DNA of 64,000 nucleotides from positions 119,386-183,385 of the forward strand of contig VMGC01000005.1 of NCBI GenBank assembly GCA_007376385.1. The letters run 5' to 3'. The stretch comes from Parcubacteria group bacterium Gr01-1014_8 (GTDB lineage: Bacteria > Patescibacteriota > Minisyncoccia > Phycocordibacterales > UBA2100). Both the position numbers and the translations under genes were made by a program. Shown one piece after another: positions 3,730 through 62,300 of this stretch; the stretch's first letter is position 1, and every line of letters starts with the position of its first letter. The notes below the pieces were generated by a model. That model was not told the origin of the DNA. It was given only the letters and a program-made list of their open reading frames with translations, and did not search any database.

Positions 3730-3817
3730 CTTTATTGGCGAGCGTTGCGAGCGAAGCGAAAATGTATTCATTTTCATTTTCGAGCCGAGGAGCCAACATA
3801 GGGTCGAATACCCCGCG
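3730..3817 (-). repeat. element of about 88 nt, copy 1 (inverted relative to copies 2 and 3); a structured intergenic repeat
   Basis: Reverse complement of CCGCGGGGTATTCGACCCTATGTTGGYTCCTCGGCTCGRAAATG-hairpin-CATTTYRCTCGCAACGCTCGCCAATAAA. Copies 2 and 3 are at 38341 and 62216. The internal hairpin differs in sequence between copies but stays paired. Confidence 0.55.
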
Positions 3818-3830
3818 GTATGAATACCCT

Positions 3831-4196
3831 TTATTTTAAGAGCCTGTCGATAGCATCAATGATGCCTTGTGCTGATTCATCTGATTTCACTACGTAGCCG
3901 CGGATACCGAGCGCCATTCCTTCCGCGATGTTATCCATTGAAGACACGTTGGAGGTAATGAGTACAGGCGTTTTACCCTCGCCGTATTTTTTGTTCAGTT
4001 CCTTCAGGAATTGGAGGCCGTCCATTCCAGGCATCTTGATATCAAGAAGGATGCCGTCGGGCTGTGATTCGCTCATTTTTTGCAGCCCCTCGCTTCCGTC
4101 ACTCGCACATACCACTTCGTACTCTGCGCTGTCCAGCTCTCCTTTCATGAGACTCTTGAAAGTCTCGTCATCATCGATAATAAGTATTTTCTTCAT
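3831..4196 (-). CDS. single-domain response regulator (CheY-like receiver)
   Basis: An IIDDDE acidic pocket, the phospho-acceptor Asp context LLDIKMPGMDG, and a length of 121 aa. Confidence 0.85.
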   Translation of the reverse strand: MKKILIIDDDETFKSLMKGELDSAEYEVVCASDGSEGLQKMSESQPDGILLDIKMPGMDGLQFLKELNKKYGEGKTPVLITSNVSSMDNIAEGMALGIRGYVVKSDESAQGIIDAIDRLLK

Positions 4197-4416
4197 GGAC
4201 TAGTTGTTTCTTTTTGCGCCACCGGGAGGGTGAAATAAAATGTACTTCCGACCCCAACTTTGGTCACAACGCCGGTAATACCTCCGTGCCCCTATTATAC
4301 CCTTGGCGATGGCGAGCCCAAGGCCTGATCCTCGCATTCTCGGGATTGCCTTGTTATCGAAAACCAAAACGCCCAGCGATAGCGCGGGGCGTTCTCCACT
4401 CCTTTGTTAGAAGAAG

Positions 4417-5751
4417 TTACGGTTGGACGAATGACTGGGTCGAACTCGTTGCCGTGTTGTTCGCTGCGTCCGTCGTCTCTATAGCGTAGTAGTACGTTGT
4501 ACTTGCCGTAAGCCCAGAGAGTCCGAGCAGGTGGTTTGTTACGAGCGTGCTATTAAACGCGTTCAAGGTCGGACTCGCCAGCGTGACAGGCGTTGTTGTG
4601 CCGTACCATACTTTACTCGAGGCGTTTTCGTTCGTCGCCCATATCACGTTTGCTGCCGTTGCAGAGGTAGACGATGCGTTTAGACCCGAGATAATTGGTG
4701 CGGTTGTGTCAGGCGTTCCTGTCGTGAACGTCGAATCTCCCGAAGTTGCACTGTTGCCCGCAGCATCTTTCGAGATAACGCGGAAGTGGTACAGCGTTCC
4801 GTTGGTGAGACCCGTAATCGCGACGCTGTGACTTGTCACAAGCGTTGCATTAAGCGTTGTCGTTGCCCCGTAGGAAGTTGTTGTTCCGTATTCGACTTGG
4901 GATGTTGCGCCTTCGTTGGTGTTCCACTGGATCGTTGCTCCTGCAGTTGTGATGCTTGTCGCAGCAATGTTGCTGAACGTCGGAGCAGTTGTGTCGGTTG
5001 GTGTCCCGCCCCCTGCACATACGCCGACAGAGTCGCCGTGAGCGAGGTGGGCTCCGAGAGCCGGAATTGCGATGACGAGTGTTTGCGGAGACGCACCGGC
5101 TGGCTTGTGGCACAGAGTCACAAATCCTTGTCCCGGCGTCGTCGAGCTGATCTCAAGTCCAAGTCTCTTGATGATGCCGAACGGAAGTTCTCGGCCGATG
5201 AAGAGCGAAAGGATTTTAGCCTGCGTCTTTGGGCCAAAGATACCGATGGAATCAATGCCGTGCTTTTTCTGGAACAGGCGCAGCGCTGCTTCGGTTCTCG
5301 GGCCAAAGAATCCAGTTATGAATTCCGGCGAGAAGAGCGAAGGATCCTGTGCAAGAAGTTCCTGCAAGTCGCGCACGTCATCGCCTGACATGCCGCGTGA
5401 GAGCGAGCGAAGGAATTTCAGGTCCTTTCTCACATCCTTTATATCGGATTTTGTTTCTTTTATCTCGACTTTGAGCGCTGCTCGCGCTGCGTCGTTCGAA
5501 TCGTCGTTGCTCAAGGCCTTCTTGTCCGCCTTCAGCTTTGCGAGCTCTTCTTGCAGAATCTTAATCTGCTGCATGAGCGCATCGGTGGTTGTGCCAAGTG
5601 CTCCGAAGTTGAACACCCACGACTTGTTGCCGTTGTTACTCTTTCCCGACTTTCCATGTTCGCCGTCATTATCGTTGTCTGCATATGCGAGCGGTGCCAT
5701 AGCGAGGCCCATGAACATTGCAGAGATTATTCCTACTCGTAATAGATACAT
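4417..5751 (-). CDS. secreted protein with a signal peptide, a coiled-coil, a peptidoglycan-binding domain and two fibronectin type III-like domains
   Basis: Signal peptide MYLLRVGIISAMFMGLAMAPLAYA. A PG_binding_1-like segment (DVRDLQELLAQD...FGPRTEAALRLFQKKHGI). Two Thr-rich Fn3-like repeats (TAPTFSNIAATSITTAGATIQW...YHFRV). The ORF track extends the start to 5865. Confidence 0.6.
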   Translation of the reverse strand: MYLLRVGIISAMFMGLAMAPLAYADNDNDGEHGKSGKSNNGNKSWVFNFGALGTTTDALMQQIKILQEELAKLKADKKALSNDDSNDAARAALKVEIKETKSDIKDVRKDLKFLRSLSRGMSGDDVRDLQELLAQDPSLFSPEFITGFFGPRTEAALRLFQKKHGIDSIGIFGPKTQAKILSLFIGRELPFGIIKRLGLEISSTTPGQGFVTLCHKPAGASPQTLVIAIPALGAHLAHGDSVGVCAGGGTPTDTTAPTFSNIAATSITTAGATIQWNTNEGATSQVEYGTTTSYGATTTLNATLVTSHSVAITGLTNGTLYHFRVISKDAAGNSATSGDSTFTTGTPDTTAPIISGLNASSTSATAANVIWATNENASSKVWYGTTTPVTLASPTLNAFNSTLVTNHLLGLSGLTASTTYYYAIETTDAANNTATSSTQSFVQP

Positions 5752-6048
5752 ATTTGCTATTGCTTTATTACTAAGTTTATAAGCCGCACGAATGTGGATT
5801 ATACACCCGTACTTGTAGGTAGGACGGTGGGGGAGTGCGCTTCTTGCGGTTGCCCAGATTAGCACACGTTTACAGCGTACTTGTCAATTTTCGGCAGTCC
5901 CAACCAATCATCAAGCACTGACGATAGTCTTGAATCCACCGTACGCCATCTTTTTCGTTCTTCCCGGCCAGCAAATAGGGCAGGGACCGCTTCCGCGAAA
6001 CTTGTGACCGCGGTTGCAAGTTCTCCATGGAGATTTCTTTTTCATTGT

Positions 6049-6315
6049 TCAATCTTCGTTGTCGTGAATGTTATCGATTGGGACCCACCATTTTGTTGGC
6101 ACCCCGTTAACAGCAATCATAACCTCTCCTTCAGGCTGACCCTGAAAGTTTTCTCTGACGCGTGTTAATTTATATTCTCCATGAGGACCGGGTTCCTTTA
6201 CTCCCGTCCAATCAACACTTACACGAAGTCCTATTTTGCCGCGAAGTTTTGGGTACTTCCAAAGCAGTCTCGCGTCGTTTTCTTCTTGAGGTGGAGTAAT
6301 ATTTTCCGGACTCAT
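6049..6315 (-). CDS. hypothetical protein
   Basis: 88-aa ORF overlapping the upstream membrane-protein gene by 4 nt (operon-like). No motif recognised. Confidence 0.35.
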   Translation of the reverse strand: MSPENITPPQEENDARLLWKYPKLRGKIGLRVSVDWTGVKEPGPHGEYKLTRVRENFQGQPEGEVMIAVNGVPTKWWVPIDNIHDNED

Positions 6316-6737
6316 ACCACTGGAATTGCAGGTTGTGTATTACGCATGCGCAATTTTCCGCCGAGCCACACGAGAGGGAATGCAGTGACCGCAAGCAGGG
6401 TGGGGTACCAATGTTGAGAGAGATTCCATCCTGCAACCACGCCGGCTATCCCGCCGATGACTCCCAAAACCGCGAGAATTTTTACATGTCGCATTTGTTC
6501 GTCCGGTGCGAGCATAGCGGTCACATATCCGCCTACGATTGCGTACAGACTGCGGTACAGAAAGGCCACAACGAGCATCCATGTGACAAATAATCCTTGG
6601 TCAGACACGGGAGGGAAAATGCCCACTTGTTCGAGCACCCAATCAGTGCCCATTGATAAAACAACAACGGTGATAAGACCTGCAAGAACTGCACCAATGC
6701 TTTTAAGGATTGTCATGCGGTAATTATTTACCCTCAA
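6312..6737 (-). CDS. hypothetical integral membrane protein
   Basis: 141 aa with about 4 hydrophobic helices. 4-nt overlap with the downstream gene. Confidence 0.45.
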   Translation of the reverse strand: MRVNNYRMTILKSIGAVLAGLITVVVLSMGTDWVLEQVGIFPPVSDQGLFVTWMLVVAFLYRSLYAIVGGYVTAMLAPDEQMRHVKILAVLGVIGGIAGVVAGWNLSQHWYPTLLAVTAFPLVWLGGKLRMRNTQPAIPVV

Positions 6738-6838
6738 ATGCTTTCTGCAAAGTCGCGATGTACGATGAATGAGATGGCCTCGCTGACTTTTGTGAGGGCA
6801 CGGGGGAGATCATATCAAATCGAGGCTGGATTGAGTGT

Positions 6839-7411
6839 CTACTGCACAAGACAGTATGAGGGGTAGTATCCGCACATGAAGCCCCGAAGTTGTATCCTGT
6901 TGGCTTCTGTCTGCCTTTCGGTAAATTCATTGAACTGTCGCCACGCCTCTTGTTCGTCGATACTTCCGCTACGCAGTCTTCTTTCAATAGCGCCAAGCCC
7001 TTCAGCGATGAGGAGACCGGGATATGAGCGAGTCCCGTTTGCTTCGTATGCGCGTAATGCCATGCCGTATTCACGGGAGAACCGGGTAAGATTTTCCACC
7101 AACTTTCCTAACGCTGGCTGTCCCGTTTTGTTATACACGGCGGAGTCGTAATTCATGCGCGCGATTTGCATACGCTCTTGGGCGTCATCGACTGCTTCAT
7201 CGAACGGTCCGAACGGAGGATCTCCCGGGCGCCATCTCGGTACAGGCCGCAATTCGGCAGGAAGTTCATCAGGATTTTCCTGTGCGAATGCCGGTCCGAA
7301 CATCATCACTCCGGCCGCTACTCCTGCCGCTTCTCCTGTCATTCGCAGAAAGTCTCTTCTGCTTGGAAGATTATTTGGAAGCGGTAGTTTTTCCTTGCCG
7401 TCCATTGTCAC
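6839..7411 (-). CDS. Tat-signal secreted hypothetical protein
   Basis: The N-terminal twin-arginine motif SRRDFLRM is followed by a hydrophobic h-region and AFA. Confidence 0.5.
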   Translation of the reverse strand: MTMDGKEKLPLPNNLPSRRDFLRMTGEAAGVAAGVMMFGPAFAQENPDELPAELRPVPRWRPGDPPFGPFDEAVDDAQERMQIARMNYDSAVYNKTGQPALGKLVENLTRFSREYGMALRAYEANGTRSYPGLLIAEGLGAIERRLRSGSIDEQEAWRQFNEFTERQTEANRIQLRGFMCGYYPSYCLVQ

Positions 7412-7482
7412 ACGTTAACTATACTCTCCTCGACAACCTTTCAAAATGGCGGGGATGCCACCGTCCTGCGAAAAACCGTGTT

Positions 7483-7884
7483 TTACATTTCTTTTGGCTG
7501 TATCACGCCAACACGGTTGCCTTCGGTGTCGAGAATGCTCACGTAGAGTCCAATGCCCGGAATGTCGTCGGGAACGCCGGGCTTTTGTCCGCCCAAGACC
7601 GTGCCTCCCGCGTCGGCCACTTTCTTCATCGCCTCTCGAATATCTTTGACCGCTATGACGACATTCGGGTATTGGTCGGATTTTGTTCTCTTAAATATTC
7701 CGCCGTTTATTCTGCCTGGCTTTGTCGGCATTCTGTCTTTATCCATTTCCGTTGTGTGAATGACAGTATAATTTGCCATTTCCGGTCCGAGGTGCTGTGC
7801 GTGCCAGCCGAACGCCTTTCCATAAAAATCTGCGGCGCGCTTCTGGTCGTCCGCAGGCATCTCAAAGTGAACTACAGGGTCCAT
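7483..7884 (-). CDS. VOC (glyoxalase/bleomycin-resistance) family protein
   Basis: 133 aa. HFEMPADD...FYGKAFGW is the typical VOC N-terminus, and GGTVL...PGIG...DTEGNRVGV is the typical C-terminal strand pattern. Confidence 0.7.
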   Translation of the reverse strand: MDPVVHFEMPADDQKRAADFYGKAFGWHAQHLGPEMANYTVIHTTEMDKDRMPTKPGRINGGIFKRTKSDQYPNVVIAVKDIREAMKKVADAGGTVLGGQKPGVPDDIPGIGLYVSILDTEGNRVGVIQPKEM

Positions 7885-8057
7885 AGTGTGTGCTCATTAT
7901 GATGATAATTATTAGGAACCCAGTATAGCAAAATCACCTTTTCAGAAGACTTGAAACAAATTGCCTGTCCGCAGCGTACTAGGGGCAATGCGGGGTAGGT
8001 TTATCCGTGCATTAAGCGCTGTAAGACGCCAGCAATCGTTTGCGTCTGTATACACAT

Positions 8058-8789
8058 ATGAATCAGATCTTATTTGGGGTTATTGCATTATTTATGTTCA
8101 CAATTACCGGTATAGGTATTGCGGAAGTAAAGACGCAAATGTTTACCAACGCAAACGGCGAGACTAACTCGGAGGTCATCTCTGACGACTCAGGGGCTGC
8201 GCGCGTCACATCTCAATCGCAAGTTTCAGCAGCGGCCGCTGCCTCTCCTAAGAATAGCGGCGGGGTTTCGGCGAGTGTAGGCGTAAACGCGAAGGCCGCC
8301 ACCACTGTTCCGGAAGTTTTGGCGGCGGTTGCCCGCGAGGTTGAGGGCGCACTATTTAGCGGCTGGAGCGATGACGGTGAGGACGAAAATGAGCACGAAT
8401 ATGGGGACGACGATGAGGACGATGAGGATAATCGCTCGTCGAATCGCACGTCTCAAACGAACACGGCTCCCGCGCCAACGCCAGCTCCTGCTCCAGCACC
8501 GACAGCATCATCGAACACAAGTACAAACACAAGCACTTCCGTGAGCACCGTTGCGACATTTACAATGTCCGATGTTGCAGCGCACAATTCATCAGCAAGT
8601 TGCTATTCGGCAATTGGCGGGTCAGTCTACGATCTCTCCTCGTTCGTGACAAAACATCCGGGCGGACAGGCGGCGATAAAATCCCTGTGCGGGGTAGACG
8701 GAACTGCGGCATATAACGGCCAGCATGGCGGGCAAGGCACTCCCGCATCGGTACTCGCACAATACAAAATCGGCGTCGTTGCCAACTAG
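8058..8789 (+). CDS. membrane-anchored protein with a C-terminal cytochrome b5-like heme-binding domain
   Basis: An N-terminal TM segment, an acidic/Pro-Ala-Thr-rich low-complexity linker (EDENEHEYGDDDEDDEDN, APAPTPAPAPAP), and a C-terminal FTMSDVAAHNS...YDLSSFVTKHPGG motif (HPGG heme-binding signature). Confidence 0.6.
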   Translation: MNQILFGVIALFMFTITGIGIAEVKTQMFTNANGETNSEVISDDSGAARVTSQSQVSAAAAASPKNSGGVSASVGVNAKAATTVPEVLAAVAREVEGALFSGWSDDGEDENEHEYGDDDEDDEDNRSSNRTSQTNTAPAPTPAPAPAPTASSNTSTNTSTSVSTVATFTMSDVAAHNSSASCYSAIGGSVYDLSSFVTKHPGGQAAIKSLCGVDGTAAYNGQHGGQGTPASVLAQYKIGVVAN

Positions 8790-8795
8790 ACGCAT

Positions 8796-9206
8796 ATGTT
8801 AGTGCTTCACATCCTTTCATTTGGGTTTGTTCTCGGTATAACCGCGATAGCCGATAAAGATGCGTTTCTGTGGCTCCGCGGAAAAAAGAGGGTGCTTGAG
8901 CGAAAAACGCTGCGGAACTACCATCTGATGATCTGGCTCGGTCTTATCTCGCTGACAATATCTGGATTCTATCTCTTCTATCCGATGCGGTTATTCTTGC
9001 TCTCGAATCTTCTCTTCGACGTGAAGTTGTTATTCGTCGCAATACTATTCGCGAACGCGATTCTCATCGGGCGTCTCATGAACCTTGCGCTTACGAGACC
9101 TTTTGCCGCCTTGACGCGAAACGAGAAACTCTCGCTCGTATTGAGCGGTGCAATTTCCGCATTCAGCTGGTTCTGCGCCTCAGCGATTGCTCTTTGGATT
9201 TTTTAG
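8796..9206 (+). CDS. hypothetical membrane protein
   Basis: 136 aa with four hydrophobic segments. Confidence 0.4.
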   Translation: MLVLHILSFGFVLGITAIADKDAFLWLRGKKRVLERKTLRNYHLMIWLGLISLTISGFYLFYPMRLFLLSNLLFDVKLLFVAILFANAILIGRLMNLALTRPFAALTRNEKLSLVLSGAISAFSWFCASAIALWIF

Positions 9207-11072
9207 AGATTCTGTTGTTAGGCCGAAGCCGCGCGGGAAAAGAGGCCGCGCACTAGCACTCGAATCTGTCCAGTCGAATGGAAGTTGCTTGATTGAGCGC
9301 GGCCAGTACATGGGAAGTTTTCCGCCAAAAGGGACGTTGCCGAAGAGCGCGTCAGCGACACCTTCTCCTTCGCTGCCGGGAAGCCATGAAGCAACGAGAG
9401 CGTCCCAGTTGGAAATATCGTCGGTGATGATGAGCGGTCGCCCGGAGATAAGTATAACTATAAGATGCCGCGTCGAAGCGCGGAGCCGTTTGATTGCGGC
9501 CATGTCATCCGCACTCAGCGTCGGATTCGCCGCATCTCCCCATCCTTCAGCATATGGCTTTTCGCCGACGATCGCGATGCCGATGTCCGCGATATCTTTT
9601 TCAGCAAATGTGCCGTCTTTGTCATATTGCACGATCGCGTCTGGACCAGTTGCCTGGCGGATGCCGGCAAGGATCGATGTCGCGCCGGGAAGCCAATTGC
9701 CGTCAACGCCTTGCCATTCCACGGTCCACGCACCTGATTGCATACCGATATTGTCCGCTGCGCTGCCCGCAATGCGTATCTTTTTTGAATGTATGGAAAG
9801 AGGGAGGATACTATCGTCATTTTTTAGAAGAACGAGAGATTTCCCAACGGCTTCGCGCGCGAGCGCTCGATGCAGCTCCGAGCCGATGACAGAAAGGTCC
9901 ACAGCAGCATCATCTGCATCAAAGAGCCCGAGAGCAAATTTCGCTCGGAGGATCCGTCTCGCCGCATCATCGATGCGACTCTCGGAGATTGCGCCTCGCC
10001 CTACTGCTTTTTTAACGTCGGAAATGAATTGCACATAGTCATAGGGGAGCATCACCATATCAACACCGGCGTTGATGGCAGTAACGGTCGAATCATACGT
10101 ACCAGGAGCTATCTCATATATCCCGTACCAATCGGAAACGACGAACCCATTGAAATGAAGTTCATTTTTCAAGACGTCGGTCAGTAAGTAGCGGCTTGCC
10201 GACACTTTCGTATCGCCCCATGCATTGAGGCCCGTCATGATGCTGAGCGCATTTGCTTCGATTGCGCGCTGGAATGGAGGAAGATATGCGTCTCTCAGCG
10301 TTTTTTCGTCAGGCGGAGTGATTCCTTGATCGATAAAAAAATCTTTGTTGCTGGAAGTCTGCCATGCCATGCTCCCCGCGCCGATATAATGTTTCGCAGC
10401 TGCCGCAACCGCAGGCGTAAATTCTTGAAGACCGCGGATATACGCGGCGCCAAGCTCTCCAGCAAGTTCTGGGTCATCTGAAAAGGCTTCGTAGATGCGA
10501 CCCCATCGTATATCTGTTGGCAGATCAAGAGAAGGTGAGAAATTCCACTGTGCGCCTGTTGCAAGCGATTCTTCCGCAGTTGCGCGCGCTATATGTTCAA
10601 CAAGTTCAGGATCTCGCGTTGCGCCGAGTCCCAGTGCGTGCGGAAAAATAGTTGCGTCCGGTACGTTTCCGTTTCCGTGGTTTGCATCGACTCCGTAGAG
10701 AATCGGAATGCCGATGCGTGACGAGCGGGATGCGTTCGTGAATTGTCCTATCATCGCGCGCCAGCCTTCGGGGGTATTGTTCTCCGGCTTGCCGCCAGCG
10801 CCGCTGAGAATCGCACCGAGGCCGTATGTTGCAACGTCATCAAGTTCGTGCACGCTGTTTTTTTCGACGAGCGCCATCTGACCTATTTTCTCTTCGAGCG
10901 TCATATGAACGAGCAGGTCGTTGACGCGCGCATCGATGGGGAGCGTTTCATCCCCATATATCGCACCATTCAGTGAGGGTGGCATGTTCCGCGGCGATGC
11001 CACCAATACGAGGGCGACGATGCCTGCGGCAATGAAGAGTAGATGTATTACATGAGAAGGAGAAATCTGCAT
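9180..11072 (-). CDS. glycoside hydrolase family 3 (beta-glucosidase / beta-hexosaminidase-like), signal-anchored
   Basis: 630 aa. GH3 N-terminal domain motifs GQMALVE, IPILYGVDANHG and the FVVSDWYG nucleophile context, plus a C-terminal GH3 domain. The N-terminal hydrophobic segment acts as a signal anchor. Confidence 0.85.
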   Translation of the reverse strand: MQISPSHVIHLLFIAAGIVALVLVASPRNMPPSLNGAIYGDETLPIDARVNDLLVHMTLEEKIGQMALVEKNSVHELDDVATYGLGAILSGAGGKPENNTPEGWRAMIGQFTNASRSSRIGIPILYGVDANHGNGNVPDATIFPHALGLGATRDPELVEHIARATAEESLATGAQWNFSPSLDLPTDIRWGRIYEAFSDDPELAGELGAAYIRGLQEFTPAVAAAAKHYIGAGSMAWQTSSNKDFFIDQGITPPDEKTLRDAYLPPFQRAIEANALSIMTGLNAWGDTKVSASRYLLTDVLKNELHFNGFVVSDWYGIYEIAPGTYDSTVTAINAGVDMVMLPYDYVQFISDVKKAVGRGAISESRIDDAARRILRAKFALGLFDADDAAVDLSVIGSELHRALAREAVGKSLVLLKNDDSILPLSIHSKKIRIAGSAADNIGMQSGAWTVEWQGVDGNWLPGATSILAGIRQATGPDAIVQYDKDGTFAEKDIADIGIAIVGEKPYAEGWGDAANPTLSADDMAAIKRLRASTRHLIVILISGRPLIITDDISNWDALVASWLPGSEGEGVADALFGNVPFGGKLPMYWPRSIKQLPFDWTDSSASARPLFPRGFGLTTESLKNPKSNR

Positions 11073-11141
11073 TGCGTAAGTATACCGTTTCCAGAAACAG
11101 CTGCTCAGAATACAGAGTGGTCGCGCTATTCTTCTTGAATT

Positions 11142-11864: not shown

Positions 11865-11986
11865 GTGCGGAGTATACCAAACGGTCCTCATGTTCCGGAT
11901 TGAAACAAACCGCATTTGTGCTGTGTAGTACGGGAAGGAGCAGGAGGACGCTCATGTTCCGAATTAAAAAGTTAGAAGAATATAGT

Positions 11987-12397
11987 ATGACAAAATTGCA
12001 GAAAGTAACCTCGATACCCTTGCTTGCGGCGTTGCTGTTCGCAGGAGGCGGAATTGCAGGATATGCGGGAATGGCCGCAGCGCAGGGGGCCGACACGGGC
12101 TCTGACGTAGAGCAGAGCGAATCTGCGGGGAGCTTCGACCGCACGAAGGGCGGGCATGTCGGCAAGAACGGTTCGAAAGAAGAACTGCTTACCGGCGAGA
12201 CGGCAGCGAAAGTAACTGCAGCCGCAGAGGCAGCTGTTCCTGGCGCTACTATCGACCGCGTCGAGACCGACGCCGAAGGCGCGGCCTACGAAGCACACAT
12301 CACGAAAGCGGACGGCTCGCACGCTACGGTGAAGTTTGATACCGACTTCAACGTGACAATGACCGAAGATGGTCCACGCGGCCGCATGGGTCGCTAA
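11987..12397 (+). CDS. secreted PepSY-like domain protein
   Basis: A signal peptide followed by an ...AKVTAAAEAAVPGATIDRVETDAEGAAYEAHITKADGSHATVKFD... pattern resembling PepSY. A stem-loop lies downstream. Confidence 0.45.
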   Translation: MTKLQKVTSIPLLAALLFAGGGIAGYAGMAAAQGADTGSDVEQSESAGSFDRTKGGHVGKNGSKEELLTGETAAKVTAAAEAAVPGATIDRVETDAEGAAYEAHITKADGSHATVKFDTDFNVTMTEDGPRGRMGR

Positions 12398-27090: not shown

Positions 27091-27223
27091 ATGAATAGTA
27101 TAGACGATGATTCCAAAATAATCTTACGCACTAGCGTGATGCGATAATCGTACTCCGAACATCACAAAAAGACTGACTGTGTGGGTTGGCGTTGTCGCGC
27201 TCATACTGCTGGATCGTCACTTT

Positions 27224-27309
27224 ATCTTGCGAGGATAGCGAGAGAAATGCGAGTGCTTGCACTCGCATTTCCGAGCGACGCAGCAAGCAAAGGTTTGAAA
27301 CCTTTCATA
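27224..27309. repeat. structured repeat element of about 80 nt, copy 1
   Basis: TCTTGCGAGGATAGCGAG-hairpin-TTCCGAGCGACGCAGCAAGCAAAGGTTTGAAACCTTTCATA. The second copy is at 27856. Confidence 0.55.
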
Positions 27310-27841: not shown

Positions 27842-27855
27842 ATACTTATTTTTTG

Positions 27856-27932
27856 TCTTGCGAGGATAGCGAGTGAAGCGAAAGCACGCTTTCGCTTTCG
27901 AGCGTCGCAGCAAGTAAAGGTTTACCTTTCAT
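27856..27932. repeat. structured repeat element of about 80 nt, copy 2
   Basis: TCTTGCGAGGATAGCGAG-hairpin-TTTCGAGCGTCGCAGCAAGTAAAGGTTTACCTTTCATA. The internal hairpin has a different sequence from copy 1 but is still self-complementary. Confidence 0.55.
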
Positions 27933-33165: not shown

Positions 33166-33439
33166 TCAGTCTGCAGCGTTAGGCAAGAATTCCGATGGGG
33201 AAATGGGCGCCGGCCATCACGAGAATCGTGATGAAGCTCCAGAGCGACACTTTTTTCTTGCCGGTACTCCGGCTTAGAAAAATGGAAGTACTCTTGTGGT
33301 GCTTCGACATCATAAATGTTTTTGTTTGCGATCGTTAAATTAAGGTAGCAGACCAAGGTCTAACTTTCACAGAGGGTGAAAAACTCCTGGAGTACAGCCC
33401 TAACGCAGGCATGGTACCACATAAGCAGTAACTAGTCAA

Positions 33440-36467: not shown

Positions 36468-36480
36468 TCCGTATACCGTA

Positions 36481-36514
36481 TACCTTAATGGTGCCGGTCG
36501 GCACCCTTAAGGTA
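36481..36514. repeat. palindromic hairpin repeat copy 2 (TACCTTAATGGTGCCGGTCGGCACCCTTAAGGTA)
   Basis: Same core as copy 1, with one stem mismatch. Confidence 0.6.
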
Positions 36515-36652
36515 CGCGCGTTCCATTGATGCTTTGATGCTATCGATAGGGAAAGAGTTTCTCATTTTAATTGGCAGCAATGCCTGAGAAGCTCCCCTTA
36601 CCGGAAATCGGCTCCGGTATGCGATTGACTATACATCCGTGTTAGAAAAGAA

Positions 36653-38127: not shown

Positions 38128-38340
38128 ACCGTGAGGCTATATTTATTCGAAGGCCGGTCTGGAGCGCGCGAAGCAATGCTGTGCGCTTGCACTCCGACCG
38201 GCCTTGCGCTCGCAAACACCCTCCCAGGGTTTGCGCGCGATCCACTATGAGAAAGTATATAGCCAATAAAGGGTATACATACCGGCGGGGCAAACCCCGC
38301 CATGAGGAACGCGCTTCGCGCATCCTCCCTAGCCGGCAAG

Positions 38341-38428
38341 CCGCGGGGTATTCGACCCTATGTTGGTTCCTCGGCTCGGAAATGAACATGAGTACACGTT
38401 CATTTCACTCGCAACGCTCGCCAATAAA
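38341..38428 (+). repeat. element of about 88 nt, copy 2
   Basis: CCGCGGGGTATTCGACCCTATGTTGGTTCCTCGGCTCGGAAATGAACATGAGTACACGTTCATTTCACTCGCAACGCTCGCCAATAAA. Confidence 0.55.
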
Positions 38429-38879: not shown

Positions 38880-38919
38880 AAATACCTTAGTAGTGCCGGT
38901 CGGCACTACTAAGGTATTT
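38880..38919. repeat. palindromic hairpin repeat copy 3 (AAATACCTTAGTAGTGCCGGTCGGCACTACTAAGGTATTT)
   Basis: Perfect 18-bp stem with the same CCGGTCGG core. Confidence 0.6.
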
Positions 38920-50962: not shown

Positions 50963-50998
50963 ATACCTTAGTGGTGCCGGTCGGCACCACTAAGGTAT
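50963..50998. repeat. palindromic hairpin repeat copy 4 (ATACCTTAGTGGTGCCGGTCGGCACCACTAAGGTAT)
   Basis: Perfect 16-bp stem with the same core. Confidence 0.6.
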
Positions 50999-51128
50999 AT
51001 CGAAAGAATCTTCGCGCCTTGTCTGTCGAGACTATATAAAAAATGCTTTTGGCTCGCAGCGGGTACACAGAGAACATTGTTTGTTGTATCACGGGGTATG
51101 CAGCATAAATTGATATACTAAAGGGGTC

Positions 51129-52460: not shown

Positions 52461-52465
52461 GACAT

Positions 52466-54285: not shown

Positions 54286-54301
54286 GCTCTAACTTTTCGA
54301 C

Positions 54302-54339
54302 CATACCTTACTTGTGCCGGTCGGCACACCTAAGGTATG
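54302..54339. repeat. palindromic hairpin repeat copy 5 (CATACCTTACTTGTGCCGGTCGGCACACCTAAGGTATG)
   Basis: Same core, with one stem mismatch. Confidence 0.6.
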
Positions 54340-54410
54340 CTCATGTTGAGGGGTGAGGTGTTGAAGGGCTCGAATTGCTCTATTGTGTGGATAGCGATAG
54401 TATGCACGGG

Positions 54411-55667: not shown

Positions 55668-55671
55668 GTGT

Positions 55672-56757: not shown

Positions 56758-57544
56758 GTTTAAGATCCGCGCGACGACCAGTAATCCCCGGCAAGGCCTT
56801 CTTGTTGCAACATTCCTTATTCTTGTTGTTATCGGTGCCGATGTATTTATGGATGGAGCGATCCGCTCCCGTATTCGCCCGATGCTCGTGCCAGTTGCAA
56901 GTTTTGGAAGAAGCGCTGTTGCAGCCGTAGCTGGGCAGGATTTCTGGTCGTCCAGGCAGGCGCTTCTTAATGAGAATGAGAGTCTGCGCGAGCGCATCGA
57001 GAAAATGGAGGCGCAGAATGCGGGTTTTGAGGCGCTCCGCGATGACTACGAGGCGCTGCAAAAAATGATGGCGGTCACCGATGAGGAGGGAGAAAAAGGG
57101 CTCATCGCACCTATCGCTTCATCGTTTCGCGCATCACCCTACGGGACATTCATAATCGGTGCGGGTTTTACAAAAGGTGTGCGTGAGGGCGATATTGTTC
57201 TATCCGAAGGCGGGTTTGTTCTGGGCGCCGTGAGTGAAGTGAACGCAAAGAGTTCGCTGGTGCGCATGGTATTTGCTCCAGGACAAAAAACTGAAGTCGT
57301 TTCCGGTTCTACTGGTTTTACCATTTCCGGTCGCGGAGGCGGGAACGCAAGCGCGGAAGTTCCTCGTGAAGCCGCGCTTGCAGAGGGTGCGCCAGTACGT
57401 GCATCGATATATGAGGGCCGGCCCATCGGAATAATCGGGAACATAGAATCTGCGTCGTCGAGCGCATACGCGGAAATTCATGTTGTTTTTCCAATAAATT
57501 TAAATACCGTGCGATACGTATATATCGTGCCTGGAAATGAGTAA
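56732..57544 (+). CDS. mreC: rod shape-determining protein MreC
   Basis: An N-terminal TM segment, a coiled-coil (LLNENESLRERIEKMEAQNAGFEALRDDYEALQ) and a beta-rich C-terminal domain. The start is uncertain, between 56693 and 56735. Confidence 0.75.
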   Translation: MMNLYQRNKFKIRATTSNPRQGLLVATFLILVVIGADVFMDGAIRSRIRPMLVPVASFGRSAVAAVAGQDFWSSRQALLNENESLRERIEKMEAQNAGFEALRDDYEALQKMMAVTDEEGEKGLIAPIASSFRASPYGTFIIGAGFTKGVREGDIVLSEGGFVLGAVSEVNAKSSLVRMVFAPGQKTEVVSGSTGFTISGRGGGNASAEVPREAALAEGAPVRASIYEGRPIGIIGNIESASSSAYAEIHVVFPINLNTVRYVYIVPGNE

Positions 57545-57803
57545 TATGCGGCTTCTGTTAGCTATCCTCGGCATCGTCTTCGTTTTTATCGCGCCGCCGT
57601 GGCTTACGGCGATGTGCATCCTAGCCCTTTCACTGCGTTGGCGAGCGTGGGAAGTTCTGCTTATTGGCGCATGTGCAGACATCCTGTGGTTCCCGGGCAC
57701 TTTTTCGTATGGAATCCCGGTTGTTACGCTTTTTTCTCTCGTTGTGTTGATAATTCTTGAGCCACTGCGAAATGAACTGCTTGTCGACAGGAGGATGATT
57801 TAG
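57537..57803 (+). CDS. mreD: small membrane protein at the mreD position (MreD-like)
   Basis: 88 aa with 3 TM segments. The identity is inferred from the position between mreC and mrdA. Confidence 0.4.
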   Translation: MSNMRLLLAILGIVFVFIAPPWLTAMCILALSLRWRAWEVLLIGACADILWFPGTFSYGIPVVTLFSLVVLIILEPLRNELLVDRRMI

Positions 57804-59597
57804 TTGTATCGAATTCTGCTCACTCGACGTGATCCCGGTAGTGCGTATTATTTGTGCATGTGGCCGCTTCAGAGGCGAATACAAGTGCAGGAGATAGACC
57901 CTGACGAGATATTTCTCGATTCTTCGAACCTTCCGCGTTTAGACGAAGCGCAATTCGAAGGTCGCGTCGAGTTTCCAGTGACGCACATGGCGCTCATGGG
58001 CGTCGGGCTCGTATTCGGCCTGGGGGCGATTGTATTTCTTGGCCGAGCGTTCGATCTACAGATCCTGAATGGTTCTGAGTATGCAGACATATCACGTGAT
58101 AACCGCCTTGAGCGTTCCATAATCTTCGCAGAGCGCGGCATTATGCATGATAGGAGAGGGGTACCCGTAGCCTGGAACGAAGCGCCAGTGGACGATTCGC
58201 ACATCACTGTTGCAACGACGTCTGCGTACGTCGCCACGACAACTCCGTTCGCGTTCCGCACATATATTGCTTCCCCCGGATTTTCGCACCTTGTCGGCTT
58301 TGTTCGATATCCGAAGCAGGACACGTCCGGAGCGTGGTGGCGCGAAGATCATGTCGGGGTCTCTGGCCTCGAGCTTCTCCTCGATGGCGAGTTGCACGGG
58401 CAAAACGGCAGCCAGATGATAGAAACTGATGCGCGTGGCAATCTTCAGCGGGAACATATTGTCATTCCAGCGAGGAAAGGGCAGGACGTCACTATTTCAA
58501 TAGATGCCGATGTGCAGGCAAAATTGTACGAACTGCTTTCAGCGCACGCTGCAAACAATAATTTTCAAGGAGGAGCATCTGTCATCATGGACGTGAAGAC
58601 CGGCGAACTTCTAGCGCTCACTAGTTTTCCAGAATATGACCACGCGGCATTTTCCGCGGGAGATACAGACGCGATACGACGCGCGAATCTCGACAAACGC
58701 GTTCCGCTTTTGAATCGCGCGGTCGCAGGATTGTATACGCCGGGCTCGATAGTGAAGCCCATCCTTGCAGCGGGGGCGCTTCAAGAAAAGCTTATTGACC
58801 CGGAAAAGGAGATACTTTCGACGGGTCAGCTCGTTGTGCCGAATCCCTATGATGCGTCGGATCCGACTATTTATCGAGACTGGAAAGCTCACGGATACGT
58901 AGACATGCGCCGCGCCATTGCAGTCTCGTCCGACGTGTACTTCTACACCATTGGCGGCGGTTTTGGAGATCAGAAGGGGCTCGGCATCGCCCTCATTGAT
59001 ACATATGCGCGTGCGTTCGGCCTTGGCGCCGCAACCGGCATTCCGCTCATCGGCGAAGCGGCGGGTGTTATCCCGACACCCGAATGGAAAAAAGAGATAT
59101 TTGGTGAGCATGATCCGTGGCGACTTGGCGATACGTATATAACCGCGATCGGTCAATTCGGATTTCAAATCACACCTATTCAAGCGGTTCGATACACGGC
59201 TGCTATCGCGAACGGCGGCAATCTCGTAACGCCTAAAGTAGTGATGGGGGGAAAGGTGGAGTCATCGTCCGTCGGTATTTCAGATGACAAGTTGGGAATT
59301 ATTCGTGAAGGCATGAGAGCCGCTGTCTCATCCGATGCAGAAAGTCGGACCGCACGCGCGCTTGATATGCCGGGTTTTGCCATCTCGGGCAAGACGGGCA
59401 CAGCAGAAGTCGGCGAGCGAAATCAGTTCATGAACTCGTGGTCGATAGGGTATTGGCCGTCGGACAATCCGCGATTTGCATTTGCCACTGTTCTCGAGCG
59501 TGCCCCAGCGGGAACGCTTTCCGGCGCGGCTCCCGGTATGCGGCCTTTTTTTGAATGGCTCGCGGCGAATAAACCGGAATACGTGAGCGCCAATTGA
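57804..59597 (+). CDS. mrdA: penicillin-binding protein 2 (peptidoglycan D,D-transpeptidase)
   Basis: Active-site motifs GSIVKP (SxxK), SSD (SxD/N) and KTGTA. TTG start in the ORF track; an internal ATG is possible. Confidence 0.85.
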   Translation: MYRILLTRRDPGSAYYLCMWPLQRRIQVQEIDPDEIFLDSSNLPRLDEAQFEGRVEFPVTHMALMGVGLVFGLGAIVFLGRAFDLQILNGSEYADISRDNRLERSIIFAERGIMHDRRGVPVAWNEAPVDDSHITVATTSAYVATTTPFAFRTYIASPGFSHLVGFVRYPKQDTSGAWWREDHVGVSGLELLLDGELHGQNGSQMIETDARGNLQREHIVIPARKGQDVTISIDADVQAKLYELLSAHAANNNFQGGASVIMDVKTGELLALTSFPEYDHAAFSAGDTDAIRRANLDKRVPLLNRAVAGLYTPGSIVKPILAAGALQEKLIDPEKEILSTGQLVVPNPYDASDPTIYRDWKAHGYVDMRRAIAVSSDVYFYTIGGGFGDQKGLGIALIDTYARAFGLGAATGIPLIGEAAGVIPTPEWKKEIFGEHDPWRLGDTYITAIGQFGFQITPIQAVRYTAAIANGGNLVTPKVVMGGKVESSSVGISDDKLGIIREGMRAAVSSDAESRTARALDMPGFAISGKTGTAEVGERNQFMNSWSIGYWPSDNPRFAFATVLERAPAGTLSGAAPGMRPFFEWLAANKPEYVSAN

Positions 59598-59664
59598 ACT
59601 CTCTTTGTTAGGCAAGAGCATGTGATACTGCCTTTTCCCCACTCCGCACCTCTACCCTTGGCAA

Positions 59665-60177
59665 ATGTCATATGCCCTGTACAATACGCAGGCTATGAAT
59701 CCGAGAGAGGACGAAAACACATACTTGTCGCAAGAAAAGTTTGACGAATTGACGGAAGAATTGGAGCACCTGAAAACGGTGCGCCGACGCGAGATAGCCG
59801 AACAGCTTGAATACGCACGCTCGCTTGGCGACCTATCCGAGAACGCAGAATATGAGGAAGCCCGGAATTTACAGGCTGCGACAGAAGACCGCATCCGGGT
59901 CATTGAAGAGCAGCTCTCCCATGCGCGCATCATCGAGCACGCAAAAGGGAAGGGGAACACCGTCAGCCTCGGGACCACCGTCAGCATTCAAAAACAGGGC
60001 GATAAAGACGACCATATCTATGAGATAGTCGGTTCCGCTGAAGCAAACATGCAGGAGCGAAAAATATCGCACCTGTCGCCGCTCGGCTCTGCACTCATGG
60101 GCAAAAAGAAAGGTGATGTGTTCACGTTCGAAACCCCCAAAGGAGCTCAAAAGTACAAGATAGTCAGCATTAAATAG
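59665..60177 (+). CDS. greA: transcription elongation factor GreA
   Basis: An N-terminal coiled-coil (EEARNLQAATEDRIRVIEEQL) and a C-terminal FKBP-like domain. The alternative start at 59695 gives 160 aa. Confidence 0.85.
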   Translation: MSYALYNTQAMNPREDENTYLSQEKFDELTEELEHLKTVRRREIAEQLEYARSLGDLSENAEYEEARNLQAATEDRIRVIEEQLSHARIIEHAKGKGNTVSLGTTVSIQKQGDKDDHIYEIVGSAEANMQERKISHLSPLGSALMGKKKGDVFTFETPKGAQKYKIVSIK

Positions 60178-60251
60178 GAGCAAGAAGGGTTATCCACTGG
60201 GCGCGCTCAGGAGAGCGCGTTACGATGAAATGACTTAGTCTTAATCAATTC

Positions 60252-60713
60252 GTGCGTATGACATGGAAATATGGCAGTGCAGGTTCGTACTTTCCCGTAG
60301 TTGGGCGGGTTTTTATCGGGTTTCTCTTTTTGGCAGGTGCGTTTAAGTTTATGGATATGGCGGGAATCGCCGTGTACATCGGTTCGGTCGGGCTTCCGAT
60401 GCCGACGTTACTCGCGTGGGTCTCGACAGTGGCGGAAGTTGGAGGTGCGCTTATGCTTATCACTGGCTTTCACGCGAGAACAGCAGCGCTGGGGCTTGTG
60501 GTGTATACAGCACTTGCGACCGTCTTCTTTCACAATAATCTTGCCGACCAAATGCAATTCACGATGGCGCTCAAAAATATCGCCATTATTGGAGGACTTC
60601 TCTACATCGCAAAATTCGGTTCGGGAATGATGTCGGTGAAGGTCAACAAGGATTGCGGATGTTGTGATGACGGAAGTTGCGTGTGCGGCGCAGATCAAAA
60701 GAAAGCAATATAG
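60252..60713 (+). CDS. DoxX family membrane protein with a C-terminal Cys-rich tail
   Basis: DoxX-type 4-TM topology, with the tail DCGCCDDGSCVCGADQ. Confidence 0.7.
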   Translation: MRMTWKYGSAGSYFPVVGRVFIGFLFLAGAFKFMDMAGIAVYIGSVGLPMPTLLAWVSTVAEVGGALMLITGFHARTAALGLVVYTALATVFFHNNLADQMQFTMALKNIAIIGGLLYIAKFGSGMMSVKVNKDCGCCDDGSCVCGADQKKAI

Positions 60714-60723
60714 GCGGATGCAG

Positions 60724-60757
60724 TGGTCCTCCCGGCAGGAATCGAACCTGCATTAGT
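60724..60757 (-). other. orphan tRNA 3'-end fragment (variable loop, T-arm, 3' acceptor strand and encoded CCA) resembling the 3' half of the adjacent tRNA-Arg
   Basis: Minus strand: CTAATGCAGGTTCGATTCCTGCCGGGAGGACCA against tRNA-Arg GTAATGTAGGTTCGATTCCTACTGGGAGCA. No matching 5' acceptor strand was found within 170 nt. Confidence 0.5.
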
Positions 60758-60897
60758 CATGCATTATCTTCCGCTGAAGATATGCGCGACCCCGCCTCGT
60801 CCGCCCAAGGCGGACTCCGGCCTTGCGAAGCTGCGCACGCTCGCTTCTCACCCCTCGGAATGGACAATCCTACCTGCCCGTTCGCTGCTTATATCTG

Positions 60898-60969
60898 TGC
60901 TCCCAGTAGGAATCGAACCTACATTACAAGCTTCGGAAGCTTGCGTTCTATCCGTTGAACTATGGGAGC
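60898..60969 (-). tRNA. tRNA-Arg (anticodon CCG)
   Basis: Hand-folded: acceptor GCTCCCA/TGGGAGC, D-arm GTTC-AACGGATA-GAAC, anticodon stem CAAGC/GCTTG, loop TTCCGAA, T-loop TTCGATT. Confidence 0.85.
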
Positions 60970-61004
60970 AGCGACTTCGGGTCCATTGAACGACGGGAGG
61001 TATG

Positions 61005-61075
61005 TGGACCTACGGGGAGTCGGACCCCGACCTCGTCCATGCCATGGACGCGTTCTACCGCTGAACTATAGGCCC
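61005..61075 (-). tRNA. tRNA-Ala (anticodon GGC)
   Basis: Hand-folded: acceptor GGGCCTA with a G3:U70 wobble (the Ala identity element), anticodon loop ATGGCAT, T-stem CGGGG/CCCCG. Confidence 0.8.
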
Positions 61076-61124
61076 CATGTGAAGGACGTGAGAAAGAATA
61101 TACTACTGGCGCGAGAGCGTCCAA

Positions 61125-61358
61125 CTAATCTTCGAGCGGGCACGTGTTTCTGACTATCGCCAAAAAAATGAGTGTACTTACGACAAAAAAAGGAGCGAAA
61201 CTAAGCAATGTGTCACTCGCTGAATGTGATGCGAGATCAAGGCGTCGAAAATAAATGACATTGCCGAGCACCCAAACGATAGTGATGAGCCATGCCTGCC
61301 ACGTAATCGGTTTCCAGCACCATCCGTTGAAGGTCTTTCTAAACCAGTGTTGGTTCAT
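61125..61358 (-). CDS. small 2-TM ORF embedded in the tRNA array (questionable)
   Basis: 77-aa ORF ending 6 nt from the tRNA-Pro 3' end. It is hydrophobic but has no support beyond the ORF. Confidence 0.2.
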   Translation of the reverse strand: MNQHWFRKTFNGWCWKPITWQAWLITIVWVLGNVIYFRRLDLASHSASDTLLSFAPFFVVSTLIFLAIVRNTCPLED

Positions 61359-61363
61359 ATTTT

Positions 61364-61434
61364 TCGGGCTGTCGAGAATCGAACTCGAGCCACATGACCC
61401 CCAGCCATGCGTACTGCCACTATACTACAGCCCG
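61364..61434 (-). tRNA. tRNA-Pro (anticodon GGG)
   Basis: Hand-folded: C1:G72 acceptor CGGGCTG/CAGCCCG, anticodon loop CTGGGGG, T-loop TTCGATT. Confidence 0.8.
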
Positions 61435-61512
61435 GCAAAAAGGCAGGCCTCCAGTCCATCGTCGGGCCGTCTGGTGAGGATGTGGCGACGCACATTCGGA
61501 GAAATTCTTTTG

Positions 61513-61583
61513 TCGGGCCGCCGGGAATCGAACCCGGTCTTTACGAACCCGAATCGTACGTACTACCGGTATACTACGGCCCG
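61513..61583 (-). tRNA. tRNA-Pro (anticodon CGG)
   Basis: Hand-folded: acceptor CGGGCCG/CGGCCCG, anticodon loop TTCGGGT, T-loop TTCGATT. Confidence 0.8.
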
Positions 61584-61744
61584 GTAAAAGAATTTCTCAC
61601 CAACTCGTTCATGCTACCTTATTTACGGCCCGACGATGGACTTGAATGCTGGCCTACAACATACCGTGATTCGTACGGTCTGTTGTTGGAGAATCGTAAC
61701 AGAATCTGTGAATATCTGCACTTCAGAAAGTGCGTGTGGTCACG

Positions 61745-61942
61745 GATAATTTCTTGCTAGAAATTTCCGCGACCCCGGCTTGGCCCGTCGGCCTCCGCCT
61801 TGCACATGCTGCGCTTCGCTCGCTACAGTGGTCAGGAATATTTTCCTTGTCGACACAAGGAAAATTTCACGACCCTGGCTCGCGGTTTCGTTTGCTAACG
61901 AAACATCGCTCCGCCTTGCACAAGCTACGCTTCGCTCGCTTG
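61745..61942. repeat. two imperfect tandem units of about 100 bp (GAAATTTCCGCGACCCCGGC…CTCCGCCTTGCACANGCTNCGCTTCGCTCGCT) directly 3' of tRNA-Val; a related motif also lies 3' of tRNA-Arg (about 60790-60855)
   Basis: Hand alignment of the three copies. Each carries a different but self-complementary hairpin after the shared motif. Confidence 0.5.
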
Positions 61943-62016
61943 TGCACCCTTCAGGATTTGAACCTGAGACCTTTCGAATGTGAATCGAACGCTCTAACCA
62001 GCTGAGCTAAGGGTGC
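61943..62016 (-). tRNA. tRNA-Val (anticodon CAC)
   Basis: Hand-folded: acceptor GCACCCT/AGGGTGC, D-arm GCTC-AGCTGGTTAG-AGC, anticodon loop TTCACAT, T-loop TTCAAAT. Confidence 0.85.
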
Positions 62017-62215
62017 GTTACGGGATTATAAAGGCTAGCGAGTGGTATTGCGAGACACAGGTAAGCAGGAGTTGGTAGTCTCGTCTATTACCATACCACC
62101 ACACCAGGTTTCCTCGATCCGACTGGTGTGGTGCGACCAATTTTTTTTCCGGTATCCGGCTTAGAAAAATGGAAGTGCCCGTGTGGTAGTATGACAAAGG
62201 TTCCTCGAAGCGAGC

Positions 62216-62300
62216 TCCTAGGTATTGAACCTGTGTTTGTTCCTCGGCTCGGAAATGCAAAAGTGCTCTTTTGCATTTCACTCGCAACGCTCGCAAATAA
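62216..62300 (+). repeat. element of about 88 nt, copy 3 (5' part diverged)
   Basis: …GGTATTGAACCTGTGTTTGTTCCTCGGCTCGGAAATGCAAAAGTGCTCTTTTGCATTTCACTCGCAACGCTCGCAAATAAA. Confidence 0.5.

Follow-up and report, generated by a model that had tools for sequence, protein, structure and literature searches.

A stretch of 64,000 nucleotides from the genome of Parcubacteria group bacterium Gr01-1014_8 (contig VMGC01000005.1; hereafter the window) contains dispersed copies of a short folded repeat, which an earlier note had described as a structured intergenic element, possibly a small RNA, a riboregulator, or a miniature inverted-repeat transposable element (MITE). The reading favored here, with a probability of roughly 0.6, is that the repeat belongs to a family of small (about 75–105 nt; about 156 nt in a long form), mobile DNA elements, both non-coding and non-autonomous, that occur in Parcubacteria (Kaiserbacteria and relatives), which are ultra-small groundwater bacteria. 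It behaves as a mobile element, showing presence/absence polymorphism with precise junctions at orthologous sites, and the decisive evidence for mobility is a dehydratase gene in which filled and empty sites can be compared. Insertion is precise, at an A/T dinucleotide followed by purines (AT↓ARRA; arrow, point of insertion), and the same dinucleotide stands on both sides of the element.

Mobile DNA is poorly catalogued in bacteria of the Candidate Phyla Radiation (CPR), whose genomes are tiny and gene-dense. How selfish DNA can survive in such streamlined genomes is illustrated by an element that lands on stop codons and rebuilds them. Assemblies break at copies of the family, as in two Logan contigs, and the family also creates spurious open reading frames (ORFs) and adds about 25 residues to real proteins; because its helices covary, a comparative screen could mistake it for a regulatory RNA. 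Should its enzyme come to light, the AT core, conserved loop, and defined ends would make a compact site-specific insertion system for a group with few genetic tools.

Filled and empty sites in a dehydratase gene

At two loci (L104 and L082) the element lies antisense in the last 81 nt of a gene for an NDP-hexose 2,3-dehydratase, which overlaps the next gene through an ATGA. Among the 120 homologue clusters listed (76–100% identity), 116 encode proteins of 210–220 residues, nearly all of 211–213 (76–91% identity); proteins of 236–237 residues occur only in the four clusters that bear the element. In element orientation, the empty site reads ...TTTCAT↓AGGAGG... and the filled site reads ...TTTC[AT]GAAAGG...CCTCGCAAG[AT]AGAATT.... 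The insert is exactly 81 nt long and lies within the ATGA stop/start junction, with an AT at each side where the empty site has one. The covariance model finds no element in the empty loci, of which L142 and L143 provide clean empty sites.

The relationships among these genes bear on the history of the insertion. In the gene body, filled L104 is 86.3% identical to empty L142 and 79.6% identical to filled L082, and so the filled loci are not each other's closest relatives. The two elements are 93.8% identical within flanks that are 74–81% identical. Either the same dinucleotide was entered twice or the element was lost precisely; in both cases the element is younger than the divergence of its hosts, and site-specific.

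Alignment of filled and empty sites fixes the ends of the element and shows that its termini are not inverted repeats. The true ends are 5'-GAAAGGTTACC and ...CCTCGCAAG-3', and the 3' end, read as its reverse complement, is CTTGCGAGG, which is no match for the 5' end. Identical flanking dinucleotides are compatible with a 2-bp duplication at a specific target or with no duplication. Duplication of TA, which is typical of IS630-like elements, is excluded at this locus because the empty site holds both AT and TA. Longer target duplications (AATAAAGG and CCAATAAA) were considered and rejected, as the part common to the sites shrinks to AT and a purine-rich target. The flanking dinucleotide is AT in most copies (on both sides of window copies A, C, and D, described below, and of L054, L076, L082, L088, L102, and L104) and (G)TA in one subgroup (on both sides of L010, L029, and L030).

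A second comparison concerns the long-form copy in the window, copy A. It is absent from the orthologous spacers on the def side in L132 and L133, relatives whose deformylases are 72–80% identical, and the covariance models find no copy over 26 kb of these two relatives. The spacer is too diverged in them to provide an exact empty site.

Copies in the window and their relatives

A repeat search of the window matches 3731–3818 and 38341–38428 as 88-nt arms that are 90% complementary, and aligns 38354–38428 with 62227–62301 at 81% identity. A conserved 17-mer and a conserved 21-mer each occur three times at no more than one mismatch; the 21-mer had no match in any shuffled sequence, and no shuffle reached the observed number of matches to the 17-mer at up to three mismatches. 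The three copies described earlier are real, at the places given for them and far above the level of chance. They are not the full complement. A search with a covariance model built from six sequences (R1) adds two divergent copies on the minus strand, at 27220–27291 (51 bits) and 27852–27918 (36 bits), which score 82 and 71 bits under a model built from 16 sequences (R2). A scan of the window with R2 yields no copy beyond these five, which represent two subfamilies in 64 kb. The ends of the first three copies also proved to lie farther 5' than had been supposed. The copies and the parts of copy A are as follows; P2 is a hairpin described in the next section.

38268–38423, plus strand: copy A, long form, 156 nt; AT flanks at 38266–38267 and 38424–38425; 93.4 bits
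38268–38340, plus strand: 5' module of copy A with extra hairpins; the long-form module is also found in L088
38341–38423, plus strand: core of copy A as first described
38368–38422, plus strand: conserved core of copy A, with loop strands TCCTCGGCTCGG (5') and CACTCGCAACGCTCG (3') around P2
38381–38406, plus strand: P2 hairpin of copy A, AAATGAACATG paired with CACGTTCATTT, loop AGTA
about 62196–62296, plus strand: copy B; 3' end CTCGCAA, then AT at 62297–62298; 90.8 bits
3832–3736, minus strand: copy C, short form, 97 nt; AT flanks at 3834–3833 and 3735–3734; 88.5 bits
27306–27226, minus strand: copy D, second subfamily, 81 nt; AT flanks at 27308–27307 and 27225–27224; 82.4 bits (R2)
27930–27857, minus strand: copy E, second subfamily, 74 nt; AT on the left (27932–27931) and AC on the right; 70.8 bits (R2)

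The ends of copy D, which reads G-AAAGGTT-TCA-AACCTTT-G-CTTGC ... GCAAG, were placed by analogy with the filled and empty sites. The 5' end of copy B is approximate, its head being AAAGGTTCC and its left side having no intact AT; its 3' end lies 10 nt ahead of the ATG (62307) of a gene for a 154-residue Cys-rich protein. A 42-nt repeat occurs at 33268–33309 and at 62155–62196 (83% identical), the second of these adjoining copy B on the left. Where copy B has GAC↓AAAGG at the border of the element, the repeat copy at 33 kb continues GACATCATAAATG, as a rough paralogous empty flank.

The right flanks of the copies in the window are rich in purines (AAAG, AAAC, AAAA, AGAA), which gives the target as approximately AT↓ARRA. 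Such a target includes T↓AA or T↓AG, and for this reason the insertions are concentrated precisely on stop codons or on ATGA stop/start overlaps. An insertion in the sense orientation rebuilds an in-frame stop with its first bases (GA or AA). Thus the TAA stop of a response-regulator gene at copy C (3833–3831) and the TGA stop of the gene upstream of copy D (27307–27305; GA from the element) each consist of the T of the flank and the first two bases of the element. This regeneration of stop codons explains the orientation bias without recourse to an RNA function. An antisense insertion, as in L104 and L082, lengthens the upstream ORF by about 25 codons. At copy E the loop of the 5' hairpin holds the stop codon (27924–27922) of a 66-residue helix-turn-helix gene; copies D and E bracket a single gene of 172 codons.

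The neighboring genes are unrelated to one another: they encode response regulators, a DUF1003 protein, a Cys-rich secreted protein, rpmB, HPF, yidC-jag, toxin-antitoxin pairs, and a deoxysugar operon. Both orientations occur beside these unrelated genes, as would be expected of mobile DNA. As read from ORF maps, the element is sense to the adjacent gene at about 12 loci. It is antisense to both neighbors, within operons, at three: L029, L088/L086 (yidC-jag), and L104/L082, the operon types being yidC-jag, a sugar operon, and a toxin-antitoxin pair. In co-oriented copies the 5' end touches or overlaps the upstream stop, and the next start codon is about 10 to about 250 nt away. Two Logan assemblies of the same organism terminate inside or beside copies A and C, one of them breaking 24 nt past the response-regulator gene at copy C; such ends are expected because the element is a repeat.

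Relatives number about 20 distinct members, on metagenome contigs of Parcubacteria/Kaiserbacteria and in one metagenome-assembled genome (MAG) labelled Saccharibacteria. An exact two-block pattern, searched against 185,579 representative genomes, found true matches in only two, a Parcubacteria MAG (L010) and the MAG labelled Saccharibacteria, which has one copy on each of two contigs (L029 and L030); 27 of the 30 genome matches were rejected as chance occurrences in GC-rich coding DNA. The strict pattern had no match in JGI metagenomes or IMG/VR. A relaxed pattern of features common to both subfamilies, followed by the model, added about a dozen members; its matches in IMG/VR were discarded as GC-rich chance matches (18.6 bits). 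A blastn search of phage and plasmid collections with copy A found no match. Over the 71-nt core (alignment A4), copy C is 80–90% identical to L029/L030, and copy B to L010, with P2 the same or nearly so. By peptide deformylase, the nearest named relatives are Kaiserbacteria. Copy density is low, with five in the 64-kb window, none in 26 kb from two relatives, and one in 18 kb of a Kaiserbacteria contig.

A weak member (45 bits, R2) was found at 8100–8205 of L065, a contig of 47% GC, adjoining a C4-dicarboxylate transporter-like gene and with a partial tandem copy (TTTTCACTCGCTTGTCTCACGATTTG) ahead of it, so that hosts outside Patescibacteria may also carry the family or something that resembles it. 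Three GC-rich metagenome contigs (L089 14300–14892, L106 5940–6100, and L094 3478–3551) carry tandem repeats with GCTCGGAA...TTCGCTCGCTGCGCTCGC beside GTCACCCTGAGC...GAAGGGTC. Their CTCGC-NNNN-CTCGC block resembles the invariant 3' loop strand of the element; they score no more than 33 bits with the model and have no Rfam match.

Several other features of the window were noted. A second repeat family consists of near-perfect long palindromes AAATACCTTAnTnGTGCCGGTCGGCACnAnTAAGGTATTT at 3069–3106, 36480–36517, 38882–38919, 50963–51000, and 54303–54340, with a conserved center and covarying stems. Four were placed against the ORF list, and each of these is at the 3' end of a gene or close to it, one such site being between convergent genes that end at 3036 and 3128; the palindrome at 50963 lies between a divergent gene pair. 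The palindromes look like a shared bidirectional terminator module. Between copy A and a gene of 91 codons, the segment 38440–38590 has GC-rich hairpins followed by GTTCAATGTTCAAGACAGCCGG and is partly conserved in L132, which is without the element. This segment may be a leader or small RNA of the conserved small gene beside mreB. Six tRNA genes on the minus strand (60897–62016) are followed, at 62885–63987, by a tRNA-Ala(CGC) gene on the plus strand, whose 3' end is overlapped by a gene for a large serine recombinase (501 residues in L001). An integrated element may have its edge in this region; about 0.9 kb past the window the contig stops.

Fold, proposed mechanism, and alternatives

All members share a fold composed of a 5' hairpin (P0), a closing helix (P1), an internal loop, and a second hairpin (P2). 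P0 is small and variable, with tips that range from 3 nt to a 14-bp extension. Its sequence is unrelated between subfamilies, and in one member (L069) an outer helix takes its place. P1 is found as TGTTGG/CCAA, CTTGC/GCAAG, CTGGC/GCCAG, CCGTG/CACGG, CTCGC/GCGAG, and AATCGC/GCGATT. The internal loop measures 12–13 by 14–15 nt and has invariant GCTCGG on its 5' side and C-N-CTCGC-NNNN-CTCG on its 3' side; L035 has an additional hairpin within it. P2 is a stem of 11–12 bp with a short loop, in a single register across copies.

These details modify the description given at first. The 5' block CCGCGGGGTATTCGACCCTATGTTGG, thought common to all copies, is present in A and C, and B carries CTCCTAGGTATTGAACCTGTGTTTG, a compensated form of the same small hairpin. 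The central hairpin does always pair, as claimed, but it does not differ altogether from copy to copy: all copies have one stem of 11–12 bp and a tetraloop in the same register, with three compensated pairs, and for copy C the hairpin drawn previously uses another register. The P2 tetraloop of copy B, TGCT (62258–62273), is the reverse complement of the AGCA of L010 (6928–6955), and their stems are identical; the difference is a loop flip of the type made by recombination within a perfect hairpin.

In the 16-sequence alignment, compensatory changes on both sides occur at 12 of 19 pairs, in 45 cells; 90% of cells are paired, versus at most 51% in slid controls, and none of 500 shuffles reached the covariation score. 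This alignment was fitted to the model and so favors the structure, and an independent, ungapped alignment of six sequences gives the same covariation picture. The three outermost pairs of P1 pair poorly and involve flanking DNA; a "conserved G-U" among them, once considered as a sign of RNA, was dropped when the empty site showed that these pairs involve the target. With helices backed by compensatory changes, the repeat has the character of a structured nucleic acid, either RNA or single-stranded DNA. The covarying hairpins are real, and they suit a folded single-stranded substrate for mobilization at least as well as a functional RNA.

The element shows no sign of encoding a peptide of its own. 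On each strand several frames contain almost no stops, which explains the conserved peptides seen earlier; these had been judged a by-product of the nucleotide repeat, rightly, as the frame is lost across indels. No reading frame is consistent across copies, since indels in P2 shift it, and the invariant bases are read in different frames by different subfamilies. A micro-ORF (MLVPRLGNE...SLATLANK; MKGFKPLLAA...) was ruled out on both these grounds. In a protein database, the peptides encoded by the element match only the four clusters of lengthened dehydratases, apart from one weak match (E 0.74). The view that the element is non-coding is thereby supported.

It is proposed that mobilization recognizes the conserved fold rather than the sequences of the ends. 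In P0 CCTTT would pair with the 5' end (G+AAAGG), and in P1 CTTGC would pair with the 3' end (GCAAG). These two segments lie on a single uninterrupted internal strand, CCTTT-G-CTTGC, which is almost the reverse complement of the ends when joined (GCAAG-AT-GAAAGG), and the (G)TA subgroup has a like arrangement (CCGGTT-T-CTGAC against GCCAG-TA-AACCGG). Because the strand is continuous, folding would bring the two termini next to each other. On its right the target has a purine-rich flank that is similar to the element's 5' end and might also pair with this strand. An enzyme acting in trans would bind the invariant nucleotides of the loop. Covarying stems, invariant unpaired bases, the lack of terminal inverted repeats, and a left-flank motif that recurs at the right end together point to a hairpin- or single-strand-specific enzyme, and this is the pattern of IS200/IS605-derived elements and of repetitive extragenic palindromic (REP) sequences. 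The best guess would be a recombinase of the HUH type (IS200/IS605, REP/RAYT) encoded elsewhere. Effects on the host, such as hairpins in mRNA between cistrons, would be a by-product.

Several observations weigh against a mobile element of this kind. Independent insertion is deduced from a single gene of 627 nt, and precise loss or recombination could explain the pattern instead. For the main-type copies the ends were assigned by analogy rather than from an empty site, and one side has no perfect AT in copies B and E and in L095. Neither the window nor the fetched loci yielded a transposase or recombinase gene bounded by these ends, and no excision product or circle junction was observed. Conservation is highest in the internal loop rather than at the termini. 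The element's two hairpins differ, in contrast to the near-identical hairpins at the ends of IS608. Finally, roughly 12 sense versus 3 antisense loci would also suit an RNA that acts in the sense orientation.

A bolder version of the proposal treats the fold as a nucleic-acid guide, in which the internal strand aligns the ends and selects AT↓ARRA sites, and hence stop codons. CCTTT-G-CTTGC is complementary to both termini, and its CCTTT part also to the purine-rich side of the target, which is the basis for this idea. The family would then be a guide-directed, stop-codon-homing mini-element, a new class in Patescibacteria, mobilized by a recombinase not yet tied to such elements that binds the invariant GCTCGG/CTCGC loop. 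This version is speculative and rather unlikely.

It is also unlikely that the copies are cis-acting structured RNAs, 5' leaders or intercistronic segments that control the stability, processing, or translation of the downstream message and whose loop binds a protein or ligand. Covarying helices with invariant unpaired nucleotides would be expected of such an RNA. Most copies are co-oriented with the downstream gene, including five whose upstream gene is divergent (A, B, L102, L063, and L059), and the nearest downstream ATG lies 10 nt past copy B and about 15 nt past copy E. Nevertheless, the constant orientation and position beside a coherent set of genes that would mark a cis-regulatory RNA or riboswitch are not seen: the element is antisense to both neighbors at the three operon loci, the downstream genes have no common function, and the distance to the start codon varies widely. 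Orthologous spacers lack the element, as do nearly all of the homologous dehydratase operons, and the orientation bias is accounted for by regeneration of stop codons. Nor can a strand be assigned from the helices, which show no asymmetry between G-U pairs (14) and A-C mismatches (10); by folding energy the antisense strand is slightly favored in 18 of 20 cases.

Searches for known RNA families were likewise negative. At the gathering threshold of Rfam 15 the window yields only tRNAs; in E-value mode copies A, D, and E give chance matches only (E ≥ 0.57), and 15 related or GC-rich loci give a single tRNA. The Rfam/Infernal scan and the search of related metagenomes proposed in the earlier note have thus both been made, the first matching no family and the second yielding the relatives described above. 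The small RNA or riboregulator suggested there finds no support, and the antisense copies, unrelated neighbors, and presence/absence pattern disfavor it. Readings as tRNA-like, 6S-like, nut/boxA-like, attC, ANTAR, or CRISPR-repeat sequences were considered from the sequence and dropped when their defining motifs were not found.

A host function at the DNA or RNA level is improbable. The copies would be dispersed binding sites for a chromosomal protein, as proposed for REP sequences and bacterial interspersed mosaic elements (BIMEs), kept by selection and not by transposition. In its favor are the invariant GCTCGG, CTCGC, and CTCG motifs, the ability to work in either orientation, and elements that are 94% identical where the flanking genes are about 80% identical. 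But recent insertion explains that identity, since the nearest relative of a filled locus is empty. Moreover, the density of copies is low and their distribution patchy, with the strict pattern in only 2 of about 185,000 representative genomes.

Sibling genes for trans-acting small RNAs, each copy its own transcription unit, are very improbable. The repeat is multi-copy, about 85 nt long, and structured, and its C-rich unpaired stretches could pair with purine-rich targets. However, a scan of 500 bases around copy B showed nothing resembling a promoter or a terminator, and the only terminator-like match inside copy A is its own small 5' hairpin. Copies of the second subfamily begin 1 nt after the flanking dinucleotide, in or abutting coding sequence, which leaves no room for a promoter, and one copy is part of an ORF.

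Integron attC-like sites bounding gene cassettes are scarcely credible: the copies are folded, with covarying stems, few conserved bases, and positions directly after stop codons, and D and E bracket one gene, but R''/R' boxes (RYYYAAC ... GTTRRRY) are on neither strand (P1 being TGTTGG/CCAA or CTTGC/GCAAG), the internal loop far exceeds the attC central spacer, no integron integrase was found in the window, and A, B, and C lie tens of kilobases apart beside housekeeping genes.

Comparison with known systems

The favored reading, a small mobile element, invites comparison with other repeats of its size. One close likeness is to the palindrome-associated transposable elements (PATEs) of the IS200/IS605 group and to the REP sequences and REPINs mobilized by HUH Y1 transposases. 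They too are small, non-coding, and without terminal inverted repeats; they have conserved, covarying hairpins and specific targets, a short left-flank sequence that recurs at the right end, and short internal sequences complementary to ends and target. Here, hairpins lie near both ends, P0 beginning 1 nt from the 5' end and the P1/P2 hairpin finishing at the 3' terminal base, and AT or GTA stands both on the left flank and either at the right end or after it. In contrast to PATEs and REPs, P0 (AAAGG/CCTTT) and P2 (GGAAATG.../...CATTTCC) are unrelated, and the invariant bases are in a large internal loop. The element has no GTAG foot of the REP type, and its hairpin-to-end distances differ from those of IS608. 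No Y1 HUH transposase (TnpA/RAYT, PF01797-type) is present among the annotated genes of roughly 70 kb. Pfam annotation of the window and the fetched loci shows no transposase and no autonomous insertion sequence (IS) with the same ends, the only recombinase in the window being the large serine enzyme next to tRNA-Ala, some 650 nt away from copy B; every match of the covariance models is likewise a short element. With dissimilar hairpins and no HUH gene seen, the family cannot be assigned with confidence to the IS200/IS605 or REP groups.

The suggestion of a MITE was correct insofar as the repeat is a small non-autonomous mobile insertion, but it lacks the terminal inverted repeats of a classical MITE and shows no clear variable target-site duplication. 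Like Correia/NEMIS, RUP, ERIC, and BOX, it is a dispersed intergenic repeat of about 100 nt, found in either orientation, probably co-transcribed with neighbors, able to fold into long hairpins, and present as several subfamilies per genome. A/T dinucleotides flank RUP and Correia (TA) as well. The termini of the present element (GAAAGG... and ...CGCAAG), however, are not inverted repeats, its P1 covaries between subfamilies rather than being conserved, its flank is AT, as shown by an empty site that holds both AT and TA, and no parent IS is known.

Rickettsia palindromic elements are likewise small palindromic repeats of a reduced genome, tolerated in ORFs through several open frames, as are the 25 extra codons in the dehydratase. 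They differ in that insertions of the present family, whose hosts are Patescibacteria, are almost always at the very end of a gene or between genes, not internal and in frame, and there is no similarity of sequence. With attC sites the element shares a structure conserved over sequence, a single-stranded fold that is probably what matters, and a position directly after stops; it differs in having no R or L box consensus, cassette arrays, or integrase, and in that the element itself moves. The literature on CPR repeats or MITEs, and searches with sequence strings, yielded nothing relevant. The family is previously undescribed and behaves like the interspersed repeats of other bacteria, such as Correia, RUP, ERIC, REPIN, and the Rickettsia palindromic elements.

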